DNA of 64,000 nucleotides from an uncultured Alphaproteobacteria bacterium (GCA_963730305.1 CAVSRB010000004.1:1-64000), one strand, 5' to 3'. Positions 21,353-45,148 are shown, numbered from the stretch's first letter. Program-made: numbers and translations. Notes: generated by a model from the sequence alone, not told the origin.

Positions 21353-21441
21353 GCCCCTGTGGCGGAATTGGTAGACGCGGCAGACTCAAAATCTGTTGTC
21401 CGGCAACGGACGTGGGAGTTCGAGTCTCCCCGGGGGCACCA
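21353..21441 (+). tRNA. tRNA-Leu (anticodon CAA), 89 nt incl. CCA
   Basis: 7-bp acceptor stem GCCCCUG/CGGGGGC, anticodon loop CUCAAAA, long variable arm, T-loop GGGAGUUCGAGUCUCCC, encoded CCA. Confidence 0.9.
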
Positions 21442-35864: not shown

Positions 35865-36590
35865 ATGAACGCGACGCAGGCGTCGGCGGACGACATCACC
35901 GATCGGATCCCCGAAGAGGCGCCGATCGGCGCGGCGCTGGACGCGGACGGCTATGCCGTCATCCCCCGCCTGCTGCGCGCGGCGGAATGCCGGGCACTGG
36001 CGGCGCTGTACGATGACGACGGACTGTTCCGCAGCCGCGTGGTGATGAGCCGCCACGGCTTCGGCCGGGGCGAGTACAAGTATTTCGACGAGCCGCTGCC
36101 GGCCCTCGTCGCGGCGCTGCGCACGGCGCTCTATCCGCCGCTCGCCGGCATCGCCAACCGCTGGAGCGCCGCGCTCGGCGACCCGGCGCGCTATCCGGCG
36201 GACCACGCCGCCTTCCGGACCCGCTGCCACCGGGCCGGCCAGACCCGGCCGACGCCGCTGCTGCTGCGCTACGGCGAGGGCGACTACAACTGCCTGCACC
36301 AGGACCTGTACGGCGAGCACGTCTTCCCGCTGCAGGCGGCGATCCTGCTCGCCGAGCCGGGCCGGGACTTCACGGGCGGGGAGTTCGTGCTGACCGAGCA
36401 ACGGCCGCGGATGCAGTCGCGGGCGGCGGTGGTGCCGCTCCGGCGCGGCGACGCGGTCGTGTTCCCGGTGCGCCATCGGCCGGTGCAAGGCTCGCGCGGC
36501 TTCTACCGGGTCACGATGCGCCACGGCGTCAGCCGGGTGCTCGGCGGCCGCCGGCACATGCTGGGCGTCATCTTCCACGATGCCCGGTAG
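35865..36590 (+). CDS. 2OG-Fe(II) oxygenase superfamily protein (prolyl-hydroxylase-like), 241 aa
   Basis: HxD...H facial triad context ([10 protein letters not shown] ... TMRHGVS), DSBH fold length. Confidence 0.7.
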
Positions 36591-36646: not shown

Positions 36647-38542
36647 CTAGTGGCGGAACAGGCGGCCGCCGTTGCCGCCGGGCTCCTCGAGCCGGCGGCG
36701 CACGGCCTGGCGGCGGACCGGCCGGAACGCCGACAGCTCCTCTTCGCTTTGCACGGCGGGATGCTCGTGCGGCGGAGCGGGTTCGCGCTGGTCGCCATAC
36801 GGATCGGCGGCCTGGTGCCGGTCGGCGGGTTGCGCGTGTTCGGCAGCCGGCGGCTGATGATAGTCCTCGTGGACCGGCGCCGGCTCCAGCGGCCCCTCCA
36901 CCGGCAGCGCCTCGTCGGGGCTGTCGAAGGCGGTGTCGCGATAGCGCCAGCGGTGGACGACCTGGTCGAGGAAGCGCTGGTCGAGGGTATCGGTCATCCA
37001 CATCGTCGAGACCGCGGCGGTGCCGCTGTGCGGCCGCTCGTGCTCGTCGAGCACCCGGAAATGCAGCCGGAAGGGGAAGGAGACGCCCTGGCCGATGACG
37101 ATGCCTTCGCCGTTGCGCAGCGCCGGCAGCACCGACAGCAGGCCCTGGAGCGAGTCGACGATCGACGCGCGGACGTATTCCTGGTCCTCGAAGCTGCTCA
37201 TGCGCAGCGCGATGATCGTGTTGCACTGGGACAAGAGGTCGCTCGACAGCTTGGTCGGGCGCTGGCTGACCACGCATAGGGAGACGCCGTACTTGCGGCC
37301 TTCCTTGGCGATCCGCGACAGCACGCGGCGCGACAGCTCGACCCCGGGCTCGTCTTCCGACGGCGAATAGCGGTGCGCCTCTTCGCAGACCAGCAGGATC
37401 GGGGTCGCCCGGTTGCTCCACAAGGCGAAGTCGAAGGTCAGCCGGCCGATCACCGCGACCACGACCGAGACGACTTCCGACGGCACGCCCGACAGGTCGA
37501 CGATCGACATCGGCTTGCCGTCGACCGGCACCCGGAACAGGCGGGCGAGCAGCAGCGCCATGCGGTCGCGGATGTCGAAGCTGCCGAACATGAAGCCGAA
37601 GCGCGCGTCTTCCTGGAGCGCCTTGATCCGCGCCCGGATGCGGCGATAGGGGCGGCGGTCCTCGGCATCGGAGGTCCGGCCCATCTCGTTCTCGAGGCGG
37701 CGGATCAGGTCCGACAGCCGGTAGGGGAAGGGCGTGTCGACGGTGATCGCCGAATCGGCCTCGCGGTCGCCCAGGTAGTCGCGGCGCGCGAGCGGGATCA
37801 GCTCGCCGAGGATCTCGGCCTCGGCGCTGCCGACGTCGTAGCGGCCGCCGAACAGGACCTGGAGCAGCTCCTCGAAGTTGAGCAGCCAGTAGGGCAGCTC
37901 GAGGTTGCGCGGCGACAGGATCTCGGCCTGGTCGGCGAAGGCGCGGCCATATTCGTTGTGGGGGTCGAGCAGGATGATGTGGGCGTTGGGGTGCTGCTCG
38001 ACCAGGCCGCGCAGGATCACCGTCGTCGCCGACGACTTGCCCGCGCCGGTGGTGCCGAGGATGGCGAAATGCTTGTTGACCAGCTCGTCGGTCAGGATGT
38101 GGGCGCCGATGCTGGAATCCTGGTGCAGGGTGCCGATCCGGATGTTCGACACTTCCGGCGGCGCATAGACCAGGGCCAGGTCCTGGTTGGTCGCGGCATA
38201 GATGGTGGTGCCGAGCGAGGGCATCATCGAGATGCCGCGGCGGAACTGGTGGCCCTCGCCGTCGCGGGTCGAGGCTTCGCCGAGCAGGGCGAGCTCGAAG
38301 ATCTTGAACTCGCGGTCCGACGCGGACTCGCGCGGCAGCGGGATCGAGAGCGCGGTGATCAGGCCGAAGACCGTGCCCTGCGCCGTGCGCATCTTCACCA
38401 GCGAGCCCATCTGCAGATAGTCGTGGACGGTCTCCTCGTTCTGGCCCTCGGCCGCCTCGACCATGCAGATCACGCTCGAGCCGGAGACCGAGACCACTCG
38501 GCCGATGGTCAGTTCGGGGGTCGTCGGGTGGGTGCCGTCCAT
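36647..38542 (-). CDS. HerA/FtsK-superfamily ATPase with N-terminal HAS-barrel and DUF87 core, 631 aa, acidic His/Pro-rich C-terminal tail
   Basis: HAS-barrel (GRVVSVSGSSVICMV...), Walker A ILGTTGAGKSSAT, ILLDPHNEY, Walker B ILLVCEEAHRY, HerA-typical AKEGRKYGVSLCVVSQRP...SQCNTIIALRMS. Confidence 0.8.
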   Translation of the reverse strand: MDGTHPTTPELTIGRVVSVSGSSVICMVEAAEGQNEETVHDYLQMGSLVKMRTAQGTVFGLITALSIPLPRESASDREFKIFELALLGEASTRDGEGHQFRRGISMMPSLGTTIYAATNQDLALVYAPPEVSNIRIGTLHQDSSIGAHILTDELVNKHFAILGTTGAGKSSATTVILRGLVEQHPNAHIILLDPHNEYGRAFADQAEILSPRNLELPYWLLNFEELLQVLFGGRYDVGSAEAEILGELIPLARRDYLGDREADSAITVDTPFPYRLSDLIRRLENEMGRTSDAEDRRPYRRIRARIKALQEDARFGFMFGSFDIRDRMALLLARLFRVPVDGKPMSIVDLSGVPSEVVSVVVAVIGRLTFDFALWSNRATPILLVCEEAHRYSPSEDEPGVELSRRVLSRIAKEGRKYGVSLCVVSQRPTKLSSDLLSQCNTIIALRMSSFEDQEYVRASIVDSLQGLLSVLPALRNGEGIVIGQGVSFPFRLHFRVLDEHERPHSGTAAVSTMWMTDTLDQRFLDQVVHRWRYRDTAFDSPDEALPVEGPLEPAPVHEDYHQPPAAEHAQPADRHQAADPYGDQREPAPPHEHPAVQSEEELSAFRPVRRQAVRRRLEEPGGNGGRLFRH

Positions 38543-38558
38543 ACAATTCTCTTCCGGT

Positions 38559-39428
38559 TCAGGCGACGCCGCGGGGCGCGGCCGTCATGTCTTGCGTTTC
38601 CGTGCCGGTGACGACCCGGATGGCGGGGAATGCCAGGGTGGCGACGCGGCGGCCGTCCTCGGCCGTCTTGAAGCCCAGCGTCGCGTCGTGGATGCTGGCC
38701 AGGAAGTTGGCGCGCATCTCGTCGAAGTCGGAGCGGCCCGAGGCTTCCGACGTCATGGTGGCGGCGGGGTCGGTGGCCTCGGTGCTGACGATCTGGAAGA
38801 CCATCTTGCCGTTGTCGACGCAGCGCACGACGACCTCGACCGCCGAACCGGCGGGCGACAGGCGGATCGCCTCGCCGAGCACGTCGATCAGCATCTGCTG
38901 GACGCATTCCTCGTCGGCATAGAGCGGCGGCAGGGCGCGGCCGAGCCGGGCCTGGACCTTGACGTCCTTGCCCTGGGCGAGCTCGCGCACCGACTGGTAG
39001 GCGGTGCGGATGACCGCGCCGACGTCGACCCGGATCTCGTGCAGCGCCCGGGCGGGCGGCAGCAGCATCGCGTGTTCCTGGTTGAAGGACTCGATCAGGC
39101 CCATCAGGTCCTGGCCGCTCGAATGGATGTCGTTGGCGTATTCGCGATAGCGCTCGGGCATCGGACCCCGCGCCTCCTCGCGCATCAGCGCCGAGAAGCC
39201 GATGATCGCGTTGAGCAGCGTGCGCAGCTCGTGGCTCATGTTGACGAGGTAGTCGGATTCCGCCCGGGTCTGCTCCAGCACCCGGCGCAGCGAGGTCGCC
39301 AAGGCTTCGGCGCGCTGCTGGGTGTCGCGCAGCGCCGTTTCGGCCTTGCGCTGGCGCACCAGGTGGCCGAGCTGTGCCGAATAGGTCGCCAGAAACGACG
39401 AGCCGCTCGTCTGATTACCAAACATCAA
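38559..39428 (-). CDS. Soluble histidine-kinase-like protein with intact HisKA H-box but degenerate HATPase_c (pseudo-kinase), 289 aa
   Basis: H-box NMSHELRTLLNAIIGFSALM; N-box Asn residues replaced (LIDVLGEAIRLS), G1 (VDNGKMVF) and G2 (ATLGFKTA) non-canonical; no TM segments; 16 nt upstream of herA-like gene. Confidence 0.6.
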   Translation of the reverse strand: MMFGNQTSGSSFLATYSAQLGHLVRQRKAETALRDTQQRAEALATSLRRVLEQTRAESDYLVNMSHELRTLLNAIIGFSALMREEARGPMPERYREYANDIHSSGQDLMGLIESFNQEHAMLLPPARALHEIRVDVGAVIRTAYQSVRELAQGKDVKVQARLGRALPPLYADEECVQQMLIDVLGEAIRLSPAGSAVEVVVRCVDNGKMVFQIVSTEATDPAATMTSEASGRSDFDEMRANFLASIHDATLGFKTAEDGRRVATLAFPAIRVVTGTETQDMTAAPRGVA

Positions 39429-39531
39429 AGGGCGATTCCCCCCGACTTCCCCGGATTCGAGGGTCGACCCTAGATCAATGTCGTTAACTACAAGTAAATT
39501 CGGCGTGCCCGTCAGGCACCTTTTGCCACCG

Positions 39532-40269
39532 TCAGTCGAGGCGCCGCGCGAGATAGTCGAACGTCGCGGCGACGATCTCGGGCTTCAACAGGAAGTCGTG
39601 CGCCTGGCGGCCGAATTCGGGGTCGACCGGCTTGATCGGCCCGACCGCCTCGGCGTCGAGCTGGAGCCGGGCCGCCCGCTCCATGAAATAGGCGAGATAG
39701 GTGGCCTCCTCGATGCCCGTCGCCGCGGTGAGCAACCCGTGGTGGGCGAGCAGGATCGCCCGCTTGCCGCCGAGCGCCTCGGCGATGATCCGGCCTTCCT
39801 CGTCGGCGATCGGCACACCCGGCCATTCGGGCAGCCAGGCGCAGTCGTCGTAGAGCATCATCGCGTCCATGTGGGCGGTGGCCAGCGGCCGGCCGGTCAT
39901 CGACAGCGCCGACGCCGCCGGCGGGTGGGTGTGGACGATGCAGGCGACGTCGGGCCGCGCCCGGTAGATCCAGGCATGGAAGCGCACCGCCGGGTTGGCG
40001 ATGCCGTCGCCCTCGACGGTGCGGATGTCGTCGTCGACCCGCAGCATCGTCTCGACGGTCGCCTCCTCGAAGCCCTGGCCGAGCGGCAGGGTCCAGTAGC
40101 CGCCGGCCGCGGCCCGCGCGGTGACCTGGCCGGCCAGCCCCGAGGCGTGGCCGTCGGCGGCGAGGATGCGCGCGGCCAGCGCCAGCGCCTCGCGCTGGTC
40201 GAGCGCCGGACGGCCGAGCCGGGCGGCGATCTCGTTCGACGCCCGGGTCCGGATGTCGTCGTCAGGCAT
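39532..40269 (-). CDS. Class II aldolase/adducin family protein, 245 aa
   Basis: CIVHTHPPAASALS ... LLAHHGLLT Zn-site context of class II aldolase fold. Confidence 0.8.
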   Translation of the reverse strand: MPDDDIRTRASNEIAARLGRPALDQREALALAARILAADGHASGLAGQVTARAAAGGYWTLPLGQGFEEATVETMLRVDDDIRTVEGDGIANPAVRFHAWIYRARPDVACIVHTHPPAASALSMTGRPLATAHMDAMMLYDDCAWLPEWPGVPIADEEGRIIAEALGGKRAILLAHHGLLTAATGIEEATYLAYFMERAARLQLDAEAVGPIKPVDPEFGRQAHDFLLKPEIVAATFDYLARRLD

Positions 40270-40419
40270 CGCGTTTCCCCCGGTCTCGCGCGGCGACGCG
40301 CCGCCTGTTGCATGGCGCGCCTTCGCCGGCCTTTGGCAACTTTACCTCCCGCCGATCCGCCTCTAAGGTTCGGCGAGACAGGCAGGTTTTACCAGATTGA
40401 CCATTCGGGAGGAATTACC

Positions 40420-41442
40420 ATGAAAATTCGTATGCTCGCCGCCGGTGCGGCGGTGGCTGCCGCGCTCGGCGCGACCCCCGCGAACGCGGTGACGACGCTG
40501 ACCTACGCGTCGTGGGTTCCGTGGACGCACCCGATCAACGTCAATCTCTACATCCCGTGGATGAACGCCATCGAGAAGGCGTCCAAGGGCGAGGTCAAGT
40601 TCCGCCGGCTGCCCAAGAGCATCGGTCATCCGCGCGCCTATCTCGACGCGGTGCGGACCGACCAGATCGACGCCGGCTTCAGCGTCCACGGCTATTCGCC
40701 CAAGCGCTTCGCCGTCTACCTGTTCGCCGAGCTGCCGTTCGCCGGCGACCGGGCGGTCGCCTCGTCGGTCGCGCTCCAGCGCACCCACGAGAAGTTCTTC
40801 GCCGACAAGAACTACTACCCGGGCACCAAGCTGATCGGCATGAACACCCATGGCCCGGGCCTGTTCCACCACCATTCCAAGTTCATCAAGTCGCCGGCCG
40901 ACATGAAGGGCCAGAAGATCCGCACCGGCGGGCCGATCCCGCGCCGGATCATCGAGTCCTGGGGCGGCGTCTCGATCCGGGCACCCGCGCCCAAGTCCTA
41001 CGAGATCCTGTCGGCCGGAATCGCCGACGGCATCACCTTCCCCTGGGAATCGCTGGTCAGCTTCAAGATCCTGAAGCTGGTCACCTACTCGACCTACATT
41101 CCGGGCGGCCTCTACAGCTCGAGCCATTACCTGGTCATGAACAAGAAGAAGTACGACTCGCTGTCGCCGGCCGGCAAGAAGGCGGTCGACATGTATTCGG
41201 GCCAGAACTTCGCGCGCATGGCGGGCAAGGCCTGGGACAAGATCAACGACGCCGGCAAGGCCGCCGCGATCAAGAACGGCAACCACATCATGACCGCGCC
41301 GAAGTCGCTGGTCGATGCGGTCAAGAAGCTGAACGTCAAGTTCGAGGCCGAGTATATCGCCGGCGCCAAGGCCAAGGGCGTCGACGGCGCCGTGGTGCTC
41401 AAGTACTACCGCGGCGAGGTCGCCAAGTTGCAGGCGAAGTAG
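40420..41442 (+). CDS. TRAP transporter substrate-binding protein, 340 aa
   Basis: Signal peptide (ANA/VT), TRAP SBP fold sequence; GGGAGGAA RBS; paralogue of next gene. Confidence 0.8.
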   Translation: MKIRMLAAGAAVAAALGATPANAVTTLTYASWVPWTHPINVNLYIPWMNAIEKASKGEVKFRRLPKSIGHPRAYLDAVRTDQIDAGFSVHGYSPKRFAVYLFAELPFAGDRAVASSVALQRTHEKFFADKNYYPGTKLIGMNTHGPGLFHHHSKFIKSPADMKGQKIRTGGPIPRRIIESWGGVSIRAPAPKSYEILSAGIADGITFPWESLVSFKILKLVTYSTYIPGGLYSSSHYLVMNKKKYDSLSPAGKKAVDMYSGQNFARMAGKAWDKINDAGKAAAIKNGNHIMTAPKSLVDAVKKLNVKFEAEYIAGAKAKGVDGAVVLKYYRGEVAKLQAK

Positions 41443-41641
41443 CCTGTCTCCATTCTGGGTTGAGAGGGCCGGCAGCCACCGCTGCCGGCCCTTTTTCTCG
41501 TCCGGCGCGCGCCCCGCCTGCGACCGAATGTCGGCCCCGGCGGATCCCCTGCGGTGCAACTTTACCGACCGTAAATATTTCTCTAAGGTCTTGCGCTTCC
41601 GCGCTGCGTGGACGCGCGTGGAAGACATAGGGAGGATAATC

Positions 41642-42664
41642 ATGAGAAAAGTACTCGTAGCAGCCGGCGCCTTTGCCGTGCTGTCGGCCGGCGCCATGCC
41701 GGCCACCGCAGCAACCACTTTCACCTACGCGTCGTGGGTGCCGCTGACGCACCCGATCAACATCTATCTCTACAAGCCTTGGATGAAGGCTGTGGAGAAG
41801 GCGTCGAAGGGCGAGATCAAGTTCCGCATCCTGCCCAAGAGCATCGGCCATCCGCGCGCCTACCTCGACGCGGTGCGCACCGGCCAGATCGACGCGGGCT
41901 TCGGCGTGTTCGGCTACTCGCCGAAACGCTTCGCGTCCTACCATTTCGCCGACCTTCCGGGCGCCGGCGACAATGCGGTGGCGGGGTCGGTCGCGCTTCA
42001 GCGGACCCAGGACAAGTTCCTCGCCAAGAAGAACTTCTTCGCGGGCACCAAGCTGGTCGGGCTCAACACGCACGGTCCGGGCCTGATCTTCACCCGCAAG
42101 GGCTTCATCAAGAAGCCGTCCGACATGAAGGGTCTGAAGATTCGCACCGGCGGGCCGATCCCGCGGCGGATCGTCGAGGCCTGGGGCGGCGTCTCGATCC
42201 GGGCGCCCGCGCCGAAGTCCTACGAGATCCTGTCGACCGGCATCGCCGACGGCATCACCTTCCCGTGGGAGTCGCTGGTCAGCTTCAAGATCACCAACCT
42301 CGTCACCTACGCGACCTACATCCCCGGCGGCCTGTACAGCTCGGGCTTCTTCTTCGTGATCTCCAAGAAGAAGTATGACGGCCTGTCGCCGGCGGCCAAG
42401 AAGGCGGTCGACAAGTATTCGGACGAGGCCTACGCGCGCATGGCCGGCAAGGCGTGGGACTATGACAACCACCTCGGCATCACCGCGGCCAAGAAGAACC
42501 ACAACCACATCATGACCGCGCCCAAGGCGGTGATCGATGCGGTCGCCAAGATCAACAAGACGTTCGAGGCGGAGTACGTCGCCGCCGCCAAGAAGCAGGG
42601 GGTCGACGGCGCCGCGGTGCTCAAGTATTTCCGCGCCGAAGTCGCCAAGCTGCAAGGCAAGTAA
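41642..42664 (+). CDS. TRAP transporter substrate-binding protein (paralogue, ~70% identical), 340 aa
   Basis: Colinear with 40420..41442 (TFTYASWVPLTHPINIYLYKPWMKAVEKASKGEIKFR...). Confidence 0.8.
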   Translation: MRKVLVAAGAFAVLSAGAMPATAATTFTYASWVPLTHPINIYLYKPWMKAVEKASKGEIKFRILPKSIGHPRAYLDAVRTGQIDAGFGVFGYSPKRFASYHFADLPGAGDNAVAGSVALQRTQDKFLAKKNFFAGTKLVGLNTHGPGLIFTRKGFIKKPSDMKGLKIRTGGPIPRRIVEAWGGVSIRAPAPKSYEILSTGIADGITFPWESLVSFKITNLVTYATYIPGGLYSSGFFFVISKKKYDGLSPAAKKAVDKYSDEAYARMAGKAWDYDNHLGITAAKKNHNHIMTAPKAVIDAVAKINKTFEAEYVAAAKKQGVDGAAVLKYFRAEVAKLQGK

Positions 42665-42667
42665 GGC

Positions 42668-43225
42668 GTGGCCGCCGACACAGACGCCGTGGCAGGCGGC
42701 CATCGTAAAGCGTTAGCGTTCTGGCTCGGCACGGTTCCGAGCCGGGCGCTGGCGCTGATTTCCTGTCTGATTCTGTTCTTGATGATGGCGTTGACCTTCG
42801 TGGACGTCGGGGGGCGCTACCTGTTCACCAGTCCGCTGCCGGCGCTCGCGGAGATCATCTCGTTCATGATGGCGGGTCTGGTCTTCGGCGCGCTGCCGAT
42901 GGTGTGCTTCTACGAAGGCCACGTGACCATCGACCTGTTCGACAGCTTCGTGCCGAAGCGGCTGAAGCGGTGGCAGGGGGTGGCGGTCAACGTGGTCTCG
43001 GCGGCCGCCATGGTGTTCATCGCCTGGCGCTTGTGGGACAAGTCGATGGACCATCTGACCTATGGCCAGGCCACCGACGAGCTGCTGCTGCCGCTGTGGC
43101 CGTTCAGCATGGGCATGGCGATCCTGTCCGTGGTCGCCGCGATCGCCCAGTTCGCCGCCGCCGGGGCCTATTTGATCGGCGTCCGTGACGATCCGGCCGT
43201 CGCCGCTGCCGGGAGAGCTACGTGA
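42668..43225 (+). CDS. dctQ: TRAP transporter small permease (DctQ family), 185 aa, GTG start
   Basis: 4-TM DctQ-like; GTGA overlap with dctM start. Confidence 0.7.
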   Translation: MAADTDAVAGGHRKALAFWLGTVPSRALALISCLILFLMMALTFVDVGGRYLFTSPLPALAEIISFMMAGLVFGALPMVCFYEGHVTIDLFDSFVPKRLKRWQGVAVNVVSAAAMVFIAWRLWDKSMDHLTYGQATDELLLPLWPFSMGMAILSVVAAIAQFAAAGAYLIGVRDDPAVAAAGRAT

Positions 43226-44991
43226 CCGACGCGCTTGTGGGCTTCGCGGCCCTCCTGTTCCTCTCCTTCCTGCGCGTGCCGATCGCCTTCTCGATGATCA
43301 TCGTCGGGTTCGCGGGCATGTGGGTCGCCAACAACCTGGGCGGCGCGCTGGCCAACGTCGGCCAGACCGCGTTCGACGCCGCGATCAGCTACGAGCTGTC
43401 GGTGGTGCCGCTGTTCGTGCTGATGGGCAACTTCGTGACCCGGGCGCGGCTGTCGGAGGAGCTCTACGCCGCATCCAACGCCTTCCTCGGCCACCGCAAG
43501 GGCGGGCTGGCGATGGCGACCATCGTCGCGTGCGGCGGCTTCGCCGCGGTGTGCGGCTCGTCGCTGGCGACGGCGGCGACCATGTCCAAGGTGGCGATGC
43601 CGTCGATGCGCCGCTACGGCTACGACGACGGCCTGGCCGCGGGCGCGATCGCCGCGGGCGGCACGCTCGGCATCCTGATCCCGCCCAGCGTGCTGCTGGT
43701 GATCTACGGCATCCTGACCCAGACCAACATCGGCAAGCTGTTCATGGCCGGCATCCTTCCCGGCATGGTCGGCGTGTTCTTCTACATGCTGGCGGTGCAG
43801 GTGGTGATCACGCTGTGGCCGGACCTGGGGCCGCGCGGCGAGAAGACCGACTGGGCCGGCCGGCTCAAGGCGCTGCGCGGCGTGTGGGGCGTGCTGCTGT
43901 TGTTCGCCATCGTCATGGGCGGCATCTACGGCGGCGTGTTCACCGCGACCGAGGCGGCGGGCATCGGCGCGGTCGGCTCGTTCCTGTTCTTCCTCGCCCG
44001 CCAGGAGACCGGCCGCCGGCTGGTCGACCATGTCGCCGTGGCGTCGACCGCCGGCACGATCGTGCTCGCGGCGCTGCTGGTGTTCCAGTGGGTGACCGGC
44101 GTCCTCGACACCCTGTTCGTGATCCGCCTCGCGGTCACCGCCGTGATCGTCACGGCGGCGCCGGTGGTGCTCTACCTCTACGTCGCCGGTCGCCCGGCGG
44201 CGGACGCGGCGGCCGACGCGTCGGGGCGCGTGACCCGGACGCTGGCCGCGTGGCGCGGGCGGATCGCCGCCCCCGGCGTCAGGCTCGGTTTGATCCTGAT
44301 CGCCGCCGCGCTCTTGCTGTCCTGGGGCGGCAGTGCGATGGGCGCCGCGATGGGCGCCCCGGGCGCGGCCGGGCTGGCGCCGTTCCTGCGCAGCAGCGGG
44401 GTCTATATCGCGGCGATCGTGATCATCGCCGGGCTGGTCGGCCGGCTGCTGATCGTGACCAAGACCTGGGGCACGCTCTACGACACGCTGTTCGAGAGCG
44501 CGACCACGACGGCGATGCTGTTCACGGTGCTGATCGGCGCCTTGCTGTTCGCCAACTTCGTCAACTTCACGACCTTCCCCCAGTCGCTGCTCGGCATCGC
44601 CGAGACCTTCAAGGAGAGCCCCTGGCTGGTCCTGATCGCGATCCTGGTCATCTACATCCTGCTCGGCTGCGTGTTCGAGAGCCTGTCGATGATCCTGCTG
44701 ACCGTGCCGATCTTCTTCCCGCTGATCAAGCAGCTCGGCCCGGGCTTCGGCCTCGGCCCGGAGGAGGTCTCGATCTGGTTCGGCATCGTCGTCGTGGTGA
44801 TCACCGAGATCAGCCTGATCACGCCACCGGTAGGGCTGAACGTGTTCGTCCTCCGCGGCGTCCTCCCGGACGTCCGAACCTCCACCATCTTCCGCGGAGT
44901 CACCGCATACTGGATCGCCGACCTGTTCCGGTTGTCGGTCATCGTCGCCTTCCCGATCCTGTCGCTGTTCCTGCCGCAGTTCGTCAAGTGA
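43222..44991 (+). CDS. dctM: TRAP transporter large permease (DctM family), unusually long (589 aa) with Ala/Arg-rich central insertion
   Basis: DctM N- and C-terminal halves conserved; ~150-aa insert (…VAGRPAADAAADASGRVTRTLAAWRGRIAAPGVRLG…) between them. Confidence 0.8.
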   Translation: MTDALVGFAALLFLSFLRVPIAFSMIIVGFAGMWVANNLGGALANVGQTAFDAAISYELSVVPLFVLMGNFVTRARLSEELYAASNAFLGHRKGGLAMATIVACGGFAAVCGSSLATAATMSKVAMPSMRRYGYDDGLAAGAIAAGGTLGILIPPSVLLVIYGILTQTNIGKLFMAGILPGMVGVFFYMLAVQVVITLWPDLGPRGEKTDWAGRLKALRGVWGVLLLFAIVMGGIYGGVFTATEAAGIGAVGSFLFFLARQETGRRLVDHVAVASTAGTIVLAALLVFQWVTGVLDTLFVIRLAVTAVIVTAAPVVLYLYVAGRPAADAAADASGRVTRTLAAWRGRIAAPGVRLGLILIAAALLLSWGGSAMGAAMGAPGAAGLAPFLRSSGVYIAAIVIIAGLVGRLLIVTKTWGTLYDTLFESATTTAMLFTVLIGALLFANFVNFTTFPQSLLGIAETFKESPWLVLIAILVIYILLGCVFESLSMILLTVPIFFPLIKQLGPGFGLGPEEVSIWFGIVVVVITEISLITPPVGLNVFVLRGVLPDVRTSTIFRGVTAYWIADLFRLSVIVAFPILSLFLPQFVK

Positions 44992-45148
44992 CGGGTCGAT
45001 AGATTGCGCCGGGCGGCAGCCCGGCGCGCAACGCAAGAGGCGGGCCCGGGTCCGCCTCTTGTCATTCGGGGCCGGCTGCGGGCACCATGCCGCCGACTTC
45101 CGGCCCTAACCCAGCCCCGGCCGCGGCCGACCGCAACAGGAGGATCCC

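Follow-up and report, generated by a model that had tools for sequence, protein, structure and literature searches.

HerA ATPases have so far been understood as resection motors coupled to the nuclease NurA or as the ATPase half of anti-phage systems, and histidine kinases as proteins fed by ligand-binding or membrane sensor domains. Here, we describe a locus in which the two kinds of protein are paired. It lies in a 64,000-nt stretch of about 70% GC from an uncultured Alphaproteobacteria bacterium (GCA_963730305.1 CAVSRB010000004.1:1-64000; this whole stretch is hereafter called the window), where a gene for a degenerate histidine-kinase-like protein of 288 amino acids (38559..39425, minus strand) is followed on the same strand by a gene for a HerA-family hexameric ATPase of 631 amino acids (36647..38542). 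Comparison with related loci points to a family of kinase-HerA modules found widely among alphaproteobacteria, passed on by vertical descent and seemingly not yet described, in which HerA may provide the input to the kinase; to this explanation as a whole we give a probability of about 0.45, somewhat short of even odds.

The closest described systems are SIR2-HerA (Nezha) and HerA-DUF4297, which share with this locus a hexameric HerA ATPase with an N-terminal beta-barrel, a partner encoded just upstream in the operon, and related HerA sequences (PDB 8wiv at 3e-68, 8xau, 9c1m and 8j4u, with SIR2-linked relatives 43-44% identical). The SIR2 protein of the first system attaches to HerA with its N-terminal alpha1 helix, which sits between two HerA beta-barrels (PMC11472057), and by analogy the kinase could dock in a comparable way. 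Unlike in these systems, however, HerA is joined here by a histidine kinase or pseudo-kinase and not by an NADase or nuclease effector, inheritance is vertical, the flanks are housekeeping genes, a CtrA-type promoter is conserved, and the anti-phage equivalog scores stay below their cut-offs. The HerA-NurA end-resection machinery of archaea and bacteria shares the ATPase family (4d2i, 1e-19) and the two-gene logic of a dimeric partner on a hexameric ring, but the present locus has no NurA nuclease and its repair-type equivalog scores fall far under the cut-off.

There are also parallels on the kinase side. In KaiC-SasA/CikA, the nucleotide state of a ring ATPase is read by a kinase without a small-molecule sensor, and the output passes to an unlinked response regulator. 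The likeness is one of concept only, namely a proposed ring-ATPase input to a sensor-less kinase, as the ATPase here belongs to FtsK/HerA and not to RecA/KaiC, the kinase carries an N-terminal helix and not a thioredoxin-like KaiB-fold domain, and the interaction is a predicted one. Similarly, DivL, RetS and ChpT combine a DHp domain with a CA fold, have impaired or absent autokinase activity, and act by protein contacts or phosphotransfer; RetS and DivL rank high among the matches of the window protein by fold and by sequence, and its sister lineages carry a His-to-Tyr change as DivL does. Unlike these proteins, the window protein has only 288 residues, no PAS or receiver domains, linkage to herA, loss of all ATP boxes, and HisKA as its one family. 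Furthermore, the promoter resembles those of the CtrA regulon in that TTAA-N7-TTAAC occupies the -35 region and a -10-like element comes after it, from which CtrA regulation can be predicted. The pair combines known kinds, HerA two-gene modules and ATPase-coupled kinases. In the literature searched, including the 2026 Sir2-HerA classification and the supplements of the Hyphomonas CtrA chromatin immunoprecipitation sequencing study, no description of a kinase-HerA pair was found and no CtrA regulon study listed the two genes, although this coverage is incomplete and an earlier description is possible.

Conservation of the pair and the HerA ATPase

A HerA-alignment scan with one genome per GTDB species confirmed at least 597 relatives, and the best 80 of these were taken together with loci collected earlier. 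In this set, a kinase of 283-313 amino acids is encoded directly upstream of herA and on the same strand in 33 non-redundant loci, at a distance of -10 to +209 nt, and the loci span Hyphomicrobium, Rhodobiaceae, Methyloligellaceae, Parvibaculum, Stellaceae, Kiloniellaceae and Micropepsaceae. The intact kinases have a complete set of boxes (H-box NMSHELRTPLNAIIGFS, N-box LLSNAVKFT, G1 DTGxGM, F PFGQV and G2 GTGLGLPIA), and at about 55% HerA identity (L007 and L008) a protein of 311-322 amino acids with both HisKA and HATPase_c is still found directly upstream of HerA. The ancestral and common form of the module is an intact, sensor-less histidine kinase with HerA, distributed across Hyphomicrobiales and Rhodospirillales-type lineages, and the window carries a degenerate derivative, whose kinase-like protein shows the characters of HerA-linked short kinases (about 290-345 amino acids, the helix SFLATYSAQLG, a DHp domain and a position 16 nt before herA).

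The two-gene module claimed in the original prediction for this DNA is genuine, as the pairing is kept in orthologous loci and homologues are syntenic in every lineage examined. The same prediction regarded a pseudo-kinase partner as an unfamiliar arrangement, which stands for the pseudo-kinase but not as a peculiarity of this genome, given the 33 loci with an intact kinase and HerA. In two loci the kinase gene is disrupted: in L011 (3797-5978) an insertion sequence (IS) splits it into a HisKA fragment, transposase genes and a HATPase_c fragment, and in L008 (4896-5864) the frame is lost after the G1 box by a frameshift or assembly error.

When open reading frames (ORFs) within 5 kb were clustered all-against-all, only the kinase and herA were conserved across loci, and the other widely shared clusters lie inside these two genes and look like overlapping shadow ORFs. 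Pairwise distances of kinase and HerA are correlated at r=0.90, with none of 2000 Mantel permutations as high, and a neighbour-joining tree of HerA groups the sequences by taxon, with Hyphomicrobium, Rhodobiaceae, Stellaceae, Bradyrhizobium and sphingomonads each forming a cluster. Housekeeping genes, among them those for a DegP-like protease, Psd, Pss, Band7, Ppx/GppA and RlmE, make up the flanks in 17 loci, and PADLOC matches there are to generic domains and involve at most 5 of 140 ORFs. On a separate branch of the tree, SIR2_2 is found upstream of HerA as a classic SIR2-HerA pair in Pelagerythrobacter marinus and an alphaproteobacterial metagenome-assembled genome (MAG; L066:4919-6001 and L067:4850-5995); as their HerA proteins are 43-44% identical to that of the window, the defence-type and kinase-linked HerAs are fairly close relatives. 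Three source labels disagree with the HerA clade, with Leptospira interrogans LS0056 (L027) placed in Hyphomicrobiaceae, Frankia sp. RB7 (L086) in Bradyrhizobium and a Thiohalocapsa MAG (L022) in Stellaceae. Contamination or mis-binning is likely here, since these HerA genes nest in alphaproteobacterial clades. A named sequence in the HerA cluster places the organism of the window close to Bauldia (Kaistiaceae, Hyphomicrobiales).

The ATPase of the window belongs to HerA by Pfam (DUF87, PF01935, 5.2e-42 over residues 134-367), by the PADLOC HerA model PDLC04105 (3.7e-119, aligned residues 10-536), by its PDB relatives, which include 8ziq in addition to those named above, and by more than 7,900 homologues, many of them more than 50% identical. 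Almost everything that had been read from the sequence was confirmed, including for HerA the HAS-type N-terminal beta-barrel (residues 12-116; 38195..38509, minus strand), for which the AlphaFold2 (AF2) model gives the strands, the Walker motifs, and an acidic tail of about 100 residues. Motif columns were taken from a 25-sequence family alignment, and the window HerA keeps every invariant of these 25, including G163, T164, G166, G168, K169 and S170 of Walker A GTTGAGKS (residues 163-170; 38033..38056, minus strand), Walker B VCEEAH (VCEEAHRY) and AKEGRKYG. NCBIfam equivalog models for HerA are far from being satisfied, whether of the anti-phage type (NF042944, 256 vs 850; NF042943, 130 vs 800) or of the repair type (NF040819, 155 vs 970; NF040937, 103 vs 800). 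As a weak signal, Pro68 and Pro70 in the SIPLP loop of the barrel are specific to kinase-linked HerAs, and no clear sign of relaxed constraint on the HAS-barrel after kinase loss was seen in the barrel/core distance ratio (1.31 vs 1.37).

The tail (residues 531-631; 36650..36952, minus strand) is disordered (AF2 predicted local distance difference test, pLDDT, of about 30), acidic and rich in His and Pro. Its length varies from 0 to 180 amino acids across HerA orthologues, and it is absent in Rhodospirillales-type HerAs and comprises 40-180 Pro/Ala/Gln-rich residues in Hyphomicrobiales; tailed HerAs include L021, L024-L027, L032-L047 and L074-L090. A short basic peptide, which is conserved, forms the end of the tail; it is GGRLFRH in the window and SLRERLMKR, SLIKQFRT or SLLKKPLR elsewhere, and it is only a guess that this peptide could tether HerA to the membrane or to a partner.

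The kinase-like protein and its lost ATP site

HisKA is the sole Pfam family of the kinase-like protein (1.4e-11), and HATPase_c gave no match at E<=0.01. The H-box NMSHELRTLLNAIIGF is encoded at 39195..39242 (minus strand), and in the alignment the phospho-acceptor His66 (codon 39231..39233), within NMSHELRT, is kept in the DHp helix, so that the canonical HisKA H-box claimed for this protein holds. The remaining boxes were compared by aligning the window protein with 32 intact orthologous partners. The N-box LLSNAVKFT has become LGEAIRLS, with Asn replaced by Glu, the G1 (DTGxGM), F (PFGQV) and G2 (GTGLGLPI) boxes are missing, and the ATP lid is shortened by about 20 residues. All these changes fall in a degenerate CA-like alpha/beta domain (38625..39041, minus strand), and the careful alignment, in which neither an N-box nor a G-box is intact, bears out the degeneracy that had been claimed. 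The window kinase would thus be without ATP binding and unable to autophosphorylate, and because this site is lost the pair in this genome probably acts through binding and not through autophosphorylation.

The fold is retained. The AF2 model (pLDDT 86.5) has a continuous helix over residues 9-83, a second DHp helix over residues 92-119 and a five-stranded alpha/beta CA-like domain, and it contains neither a sensor domain nor a membrane segment, in agreement with the original prediction. Foldseek matched kinase cores at 1e-14 to 1e-11, with GacS, RetS, ShkA, HK853 and DivL in the top set. As such, a pseudo-kinase as the partner of HerA is supported by the loss of boxes together with the retention of a kinase-like fold. 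The scores do not single out the DivJ/PleC/PdhS family, as TorS, BarA, LuxQ and HrmK score about equally, and every score lies far below the NCBIfam equivalog cut-offs, none of which is reached.

The N-terminal helix bears the signature SFLATYSAQLG (39366..39398, minus strand), which conforms to the family consensus SL[LIM]xx[YF]xxx[LF]G and is here proposed as the element that would dock on HerA. This consensus is present in nearly all 35 aligned partner sequences, degenerate members too, and in the window protein the region is helical with pLDDT >90. No evident sequence similarity was found between this helix and the SIR2 N-terminus of L066 and L067.

Close relatives of the pseudo-kinase are few, in contrast to the homologues of HerA. 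They comprise P0002-P0009, all with HisKA only, and after these come intact kinases with about 33% identity; when 1.84 billion cluster representatives were searched exhaustively with HMMER, only 28 matches fell below 1e-30, the nearest of which are other degenerate, HerA-linked proteins. A pseudo-kinase followed directly by HerA is found in four lineages. The phospho-acceptor His is kept in P0008 (L004) and in P0274 (L093), in which the CA domain is degenerate with an acidic insert, but it is replaced by Tyr in P0253 (L092; NMNYELRT) and by Asp in the partner of L009, a protein of 325 amino acids with no Pfam match. Tyr is also found in P0009 (L005/L006; MSYKLRT), whose contigs stop 34-40 residues into the next ORF, a fragment that is not matchable to HerA. 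The residue is therefore replaced in three of five related pseudo-kinase lineages (Tyr, Tyr and Asp), and, judged from these sequences, phospho-His chemistry is not the conserved function of the subfamily. The phospho-acceptor attributed to the window protein is present, but the substitutions in its sister lineages make a functional role for it doubtful. The window, L001 and L009 form one subclade in the HerA tree, a grouping that fits one loss event at the ATP site.

Selection on the pair was estimated against the 75%-identical locus L001. The ratio of nonsynonymous to synonymous substitution rates (dN/dS) is 0.18 for the N-terminal helix and DHp domain, 0.41 for the CA-like domain, 0.13 for the HerA core and 0.46 for the HerA tail, and owing to these purifying values the pseudo-kinase gene is, as far as such ratios tell, maintained by selection. 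The 57%-identical locus L004 was discarded as a test because it is uninformative, dS being apparently saturated or biased at 70% GC.

The extent of the gene needs a small correction. The ORF 38559..39428 (minus strand), given earlier, does translate into a 289-codon product that includes NMSHELRTLLNAIIGF, but the more probable start is the ATG at 39425, one codon inside the TTG at 39428, and the resulting product of 288 amino acids is the database protein P0001. One member of the P0001 cluster, P0241, bears the JGI name 'Amt family ammonium transporter', an apparent annotation error.

Promoter region and flanking genes

CtrA boxes that overlap the -35 region typically activate transcription. 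As the -35 region upstream of the pseudo-kinase gene is a CtrA-type box, the module is predicted to be activated together with the CtrA regulon of cell cycle and dispersal. The element TTTACTTGTAGTTAAC (39483..39498, minus strand) agrees with TTAA-N7-TTAAC at 8 of 9 positions, is oriented with the operon, and is the only site on the two strands of the window that deviates at no more than one position, with 0.22 expected by chance. Nine nucleotides downstream lies the -10-like element CTAGGG (39468..39473, minus strand), which is invariant in the window, L001 and L004, and its CTA is kept at this spacing in most loci. An intergenic alignment of the window with L001-L003 and L004 shows the invariant block AATTTACTTGTrGTTAACGwCrTTGnnCTAGGGTCG. 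TTAA-N7-TTAAC corresponds to the consensus for CtrA (PMC7200025), and many orthologous loci have the longer version known from rhizobia, GTTAACC-N5-TTWAMC (PMC4914127).

Across the 33 loci, boxes like TTAA-N7-TTAAC lie 44-73 nt upstream of the start, with a score of 8/9 in 15 loci and 7/9 in 15, compared to shuffle rates of 1.6% and 13%, respectively. The composite pattern TTAA-N7-TTAAC-N9-CTA, with 12 positions, was scored in 37 loci and reaches at least 10/12 within 160 nt upstream in 18 of them; there are 23 such sites in all 895,000 positions of the loci, and 18 of the 23 are these promoter sites. At a threshold of 9/12, the pattern is found at -44 to -73 in 26 of the 37. Both the place and the layout of the CtrA-type box are conserved over the 37 loci. 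Many loci with HerA only also have a CtrA-like box, for example a perfect TTAA-N7-TTAAC (9/9) at -120 in L063 and a conserved GTAAA-N7-TTAA about 180-210 nt upstream of herA in the Bradyrhizobium group (L074, L078, L080, L085 and L090), so the link to CtrA may be a property of HerA itself that is older than the loss of the kinase.

The locus appears to be a self-contained operon, running from its own promoter through the pseudo-kinase to HerA, as part of the explanation weighted above. After the stop of the upstream aldolase gene a GC-rich, terminator-like hairpin (39505..39519, minus strand) separates that gene from the operon promoter. The hairpin occurs at the same place in the window, L001 and L004, where folding shows it to be built from different sequences, and an independent promoter would follow from its position after the aldolase stop in all three loci; its U-tract is weak, and a terminator consensus scan gave no terminator at 39505..39519. 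Within the operon, the 16-nt gap reported earlier between the two genes (38543..38558, minus strand) holds and contains a Shine-Dalgarno-like element, GGAAGAG, before the HerA ATG (38542).

A perfect 12-bp palindrome, AGGGTCGACCCT (39460..39471), had been suggested as an operator. It is indeed present, but the role was ruled out: the left half is the -10-like CTAGGGTC, the right half is not conserved in orthologous loci, and the window contains 48 perfect 12-bp palindromes, against 35+-5 in shuffles, so that the palindrome is best seen as a chance extension of the -10-like element.

The neighbourhood was checked by scanning candidate ORFs between about 30 and 45 kb of the window. No NurA, SIR2, DUF4297 or response regulator was found among them, which agrees with the earlier statement that NurA, Sir2 and DUF4297 are absent beside HerA. 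Family matches among the neighbours comprise aldolase_II, a TRAP transporter, Oxygenase-NA, an alpha/beta hydrolase and an AMP-binding enzyme, and several ORFs have no family match. The class II aldolase gene (aldolase_II; 39532..40269, minus strand, stop codon 39532..39534) is the upstream neighbour, beyond which a TRAP transporter cluster (about 40400..45000, plus strand) encodes two DctP-type binding proteins, DctQ and DctM; a 654-aa ORF at 39478..41442 (plus strand) is an over-extension across these true genes. On the other side, the Oxygenase-NA gene (PF09859, 2OG-Fe(II); 35865..36590, plus strand) converges with herA at 56 nt from its stop and is kept only in the closest relative, L001 (75% identical locus), and not in more distant loci. 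A single tRNA gene (21353..21438, plus strand) is the sole Rfam match of the window, and the Rfam scan gave no RNA element at the operon.

HerA as a possible input and the competing explanations

The entry into DHp helix 1 is the usual place of input to histidine kinases. The kinases of this family have no sensor, and their N-terminal helix, which is the only non-catalytic part, runs straight into DHp helix 1. We propose, at the probability of about 0.45 given above, that the pair is a CtrA-controlled signalling module in which the HerA hexamer would be the input for the kinase or, in the window, for a pseudo-kinase adaptor. Kinase dimers would dock by the N-terminal helix on the hexamer, probably between its N-terminal beta-barrels; the absence of a sensor, the conserved helix, HerA as the sole invariant partner and the SIR2 precedent all point to such a contact. 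Transcription would start from the promoter with the CtrA-type box as its -35 region, and the nucleotide- or DNA-bound state of HerA would set the kinase/phosphatase output to an unlinked response regulator. In the window lineage, the dead kinase may have been kept as a dimeric adaptor of DHp and CA fold bound to HerA, acting as a scaffold or by heterodimerisation, much like DivL or RetS, or, less likely, as a ChpT-like phosphatase or phosphotransfer protein, an option considered because the window protein retains His. Binding by CtrA, the signalling direction and the role in the cell are putative throughout. A more specific version, in which the HerA ring is the sensory input of a two-component pathway, so that a DNA-engaged motor is read by a kinase or DivL-like pseudo-kinase and feeds the CtrA circuit, is possible but tentative, and we consider it rather less probable than the module as such.

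Several observations weigh against this proposal. Several HerA lineages have lost the kinase altogether, and the Bradyrhizobium clade nests inside the kinase-linked group, so HerA has a function independent of the kinase; a profile search of all upstream ORFs found no hidden kinase in the HerA-only loci of Bradyrhizobium, sphingomonads and Geminicoccaceae, where the upstream genes are lineage-specific (Alph_Pro_TM, PmbA/TldD, GHMP kinase and a divergent GGDEF-EAL gene). Moreover, no conserved third gene or response regulator occurs within 5 kb of the loci, and a sigma-70 consensus scan of the locus gave no promoter match. The kinase core is generic, with DivJ, PdhS, TorS, BarA, LuxQ and HrmK scoring about equally, and it is the promoter that provides the predicted link of the module to the DivK/CtrA network. 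The nearest solved HerA structures are defence-system HerAs and the Sulfolobus HerA. The CA-like domain also evolves fast, with dN/dS of about 1 against L004, a comparison in which dS looks saturated or biased.

Some of these points are shared by the view that the kinase-like gene is a decaying relic, that HerA works alone as in Bradyrhizobium and sphingomonads, and that the ORF persists since stops are rare at 70% GC. The loss of every ATP-binding box, the replaced phospho-acceptor in three of five lineages, the CA-like domain evolving 2-4x faster than the rest (and at that ratio near 1 against L004), and the outright losses, the IS-split gene of L011 and the apparent frameshift of L008 would all fit. 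Decay is nevertheless unlikely, as at least five pseudo-kinase lineages, down to 34% identity, have preserved a full-length ORF (286-345 amino acids), which herA follows after 4-30 nt wherever the downstream sequence suffices, the N-terminal motif and DHp domain are under purifying selection, the AF2 fold is confident, and members at 75-83% identity share an almost unchanged C-terminal block, DFDEMRANFLASIHDATLGF..DGRRVATLAFP. If the gene is kept, it could instead encode a histidine phosphotransferase or phosphatase (ChpT- or Spo0B-like) that shuttles phosphate between receivers, with HerA only co-regulated. A DHp domain with His and a CA-like domain unable to bind ATP is a ChpT-like architecture, the His and its flanking E-L-R-T-L-L-N are intact in the window-type and P0274 lineages, and a CtrA-type promoter fits the regulon. 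However, phosphotransfer cannot be the conserved function of the subfamily, because sister lineages with the same gene order have replaced the His by Tyr or Asp; HisKA as the only Pfam family at E<=0.01 leaves no match to the ChpT (HPTransfase) family, and strict linkage and co-divergence with HerA argue for physical or functional coupling, which together make this reading distinctly unlikely.

The known roles of HerA also need to be weighed. An anti-phage system of the HerA class, in which the kinase-like protein is an effector substitute or trigger sensor, is suggested by the best profile matches of the ATPase, which are PADLOC HerA models, by the solved defence structures nearest to it, by the same layout with the partner gene just upstream of herA, a place taken by SIR2 in alphaproteobacterial relatives at 43-44% identity, and by IS elements near some loci. 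Yet the upstream partner has HisKA only and no toxic effector domain, PADLOC found no effector match and no SIR2 or DUF4297 effector stands beside herA, the anti-phage equivalogs are missed by a wide margin, and a CtrA-type promoter kept across orders is unusual for mobile defence genes. Since the HerA tree also follows taxonomy, kinase and HerA co-diverge, and the 17 sets of flanks are housekeeping genes with few and generic PADLOC matches, the defence ATPase that had been suggested is not favoured and appears improbable. Even less can be said for a HerA of DNA repair or end resection that works with an unlinked nuclease instead of NurA and has the kinase as an unrelated neighbour. The HerA family, the HAS-barrel, the intact ATPase and the convergent Oxygenase-NA gene, annotated by Pfam as acting on damaged DNA, would suit such a role, but NurA is absent among the ORFs scanned on both sides, no nuclease is conserved, the repair equivalog scores fall far short of their cut-offs, the Oxygenase-NA neighbour is conserved in L001 only, and the kinase linkage holds in 33 loci; we regard this explanation as highly improbable.

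Compared to these alternatives, the proposal of HerA as an input to a kinase would bring several consequences. A third use of HerA is suggested by a vertically inherited module, present in many alphaproteobacterial species, that ties a sensor-less kinase to the HerA ring and has a promoter of the CtrA type. The lineage of the window is a natural experiment, as the chemistry has been lost and the pairing kept, which separates binding from phosphorylation, and it also shows how defence-type and housekeeping ATPase scaffolds can be sister groups. For alphaproteobacteria, the kinase-HerA module may offer a testable route from DNA or chromosome status to the cell-cycle network. If true, HerA-as-input would be a new class of input for two-component signalling and would give HerA a role beyond defence and repair.

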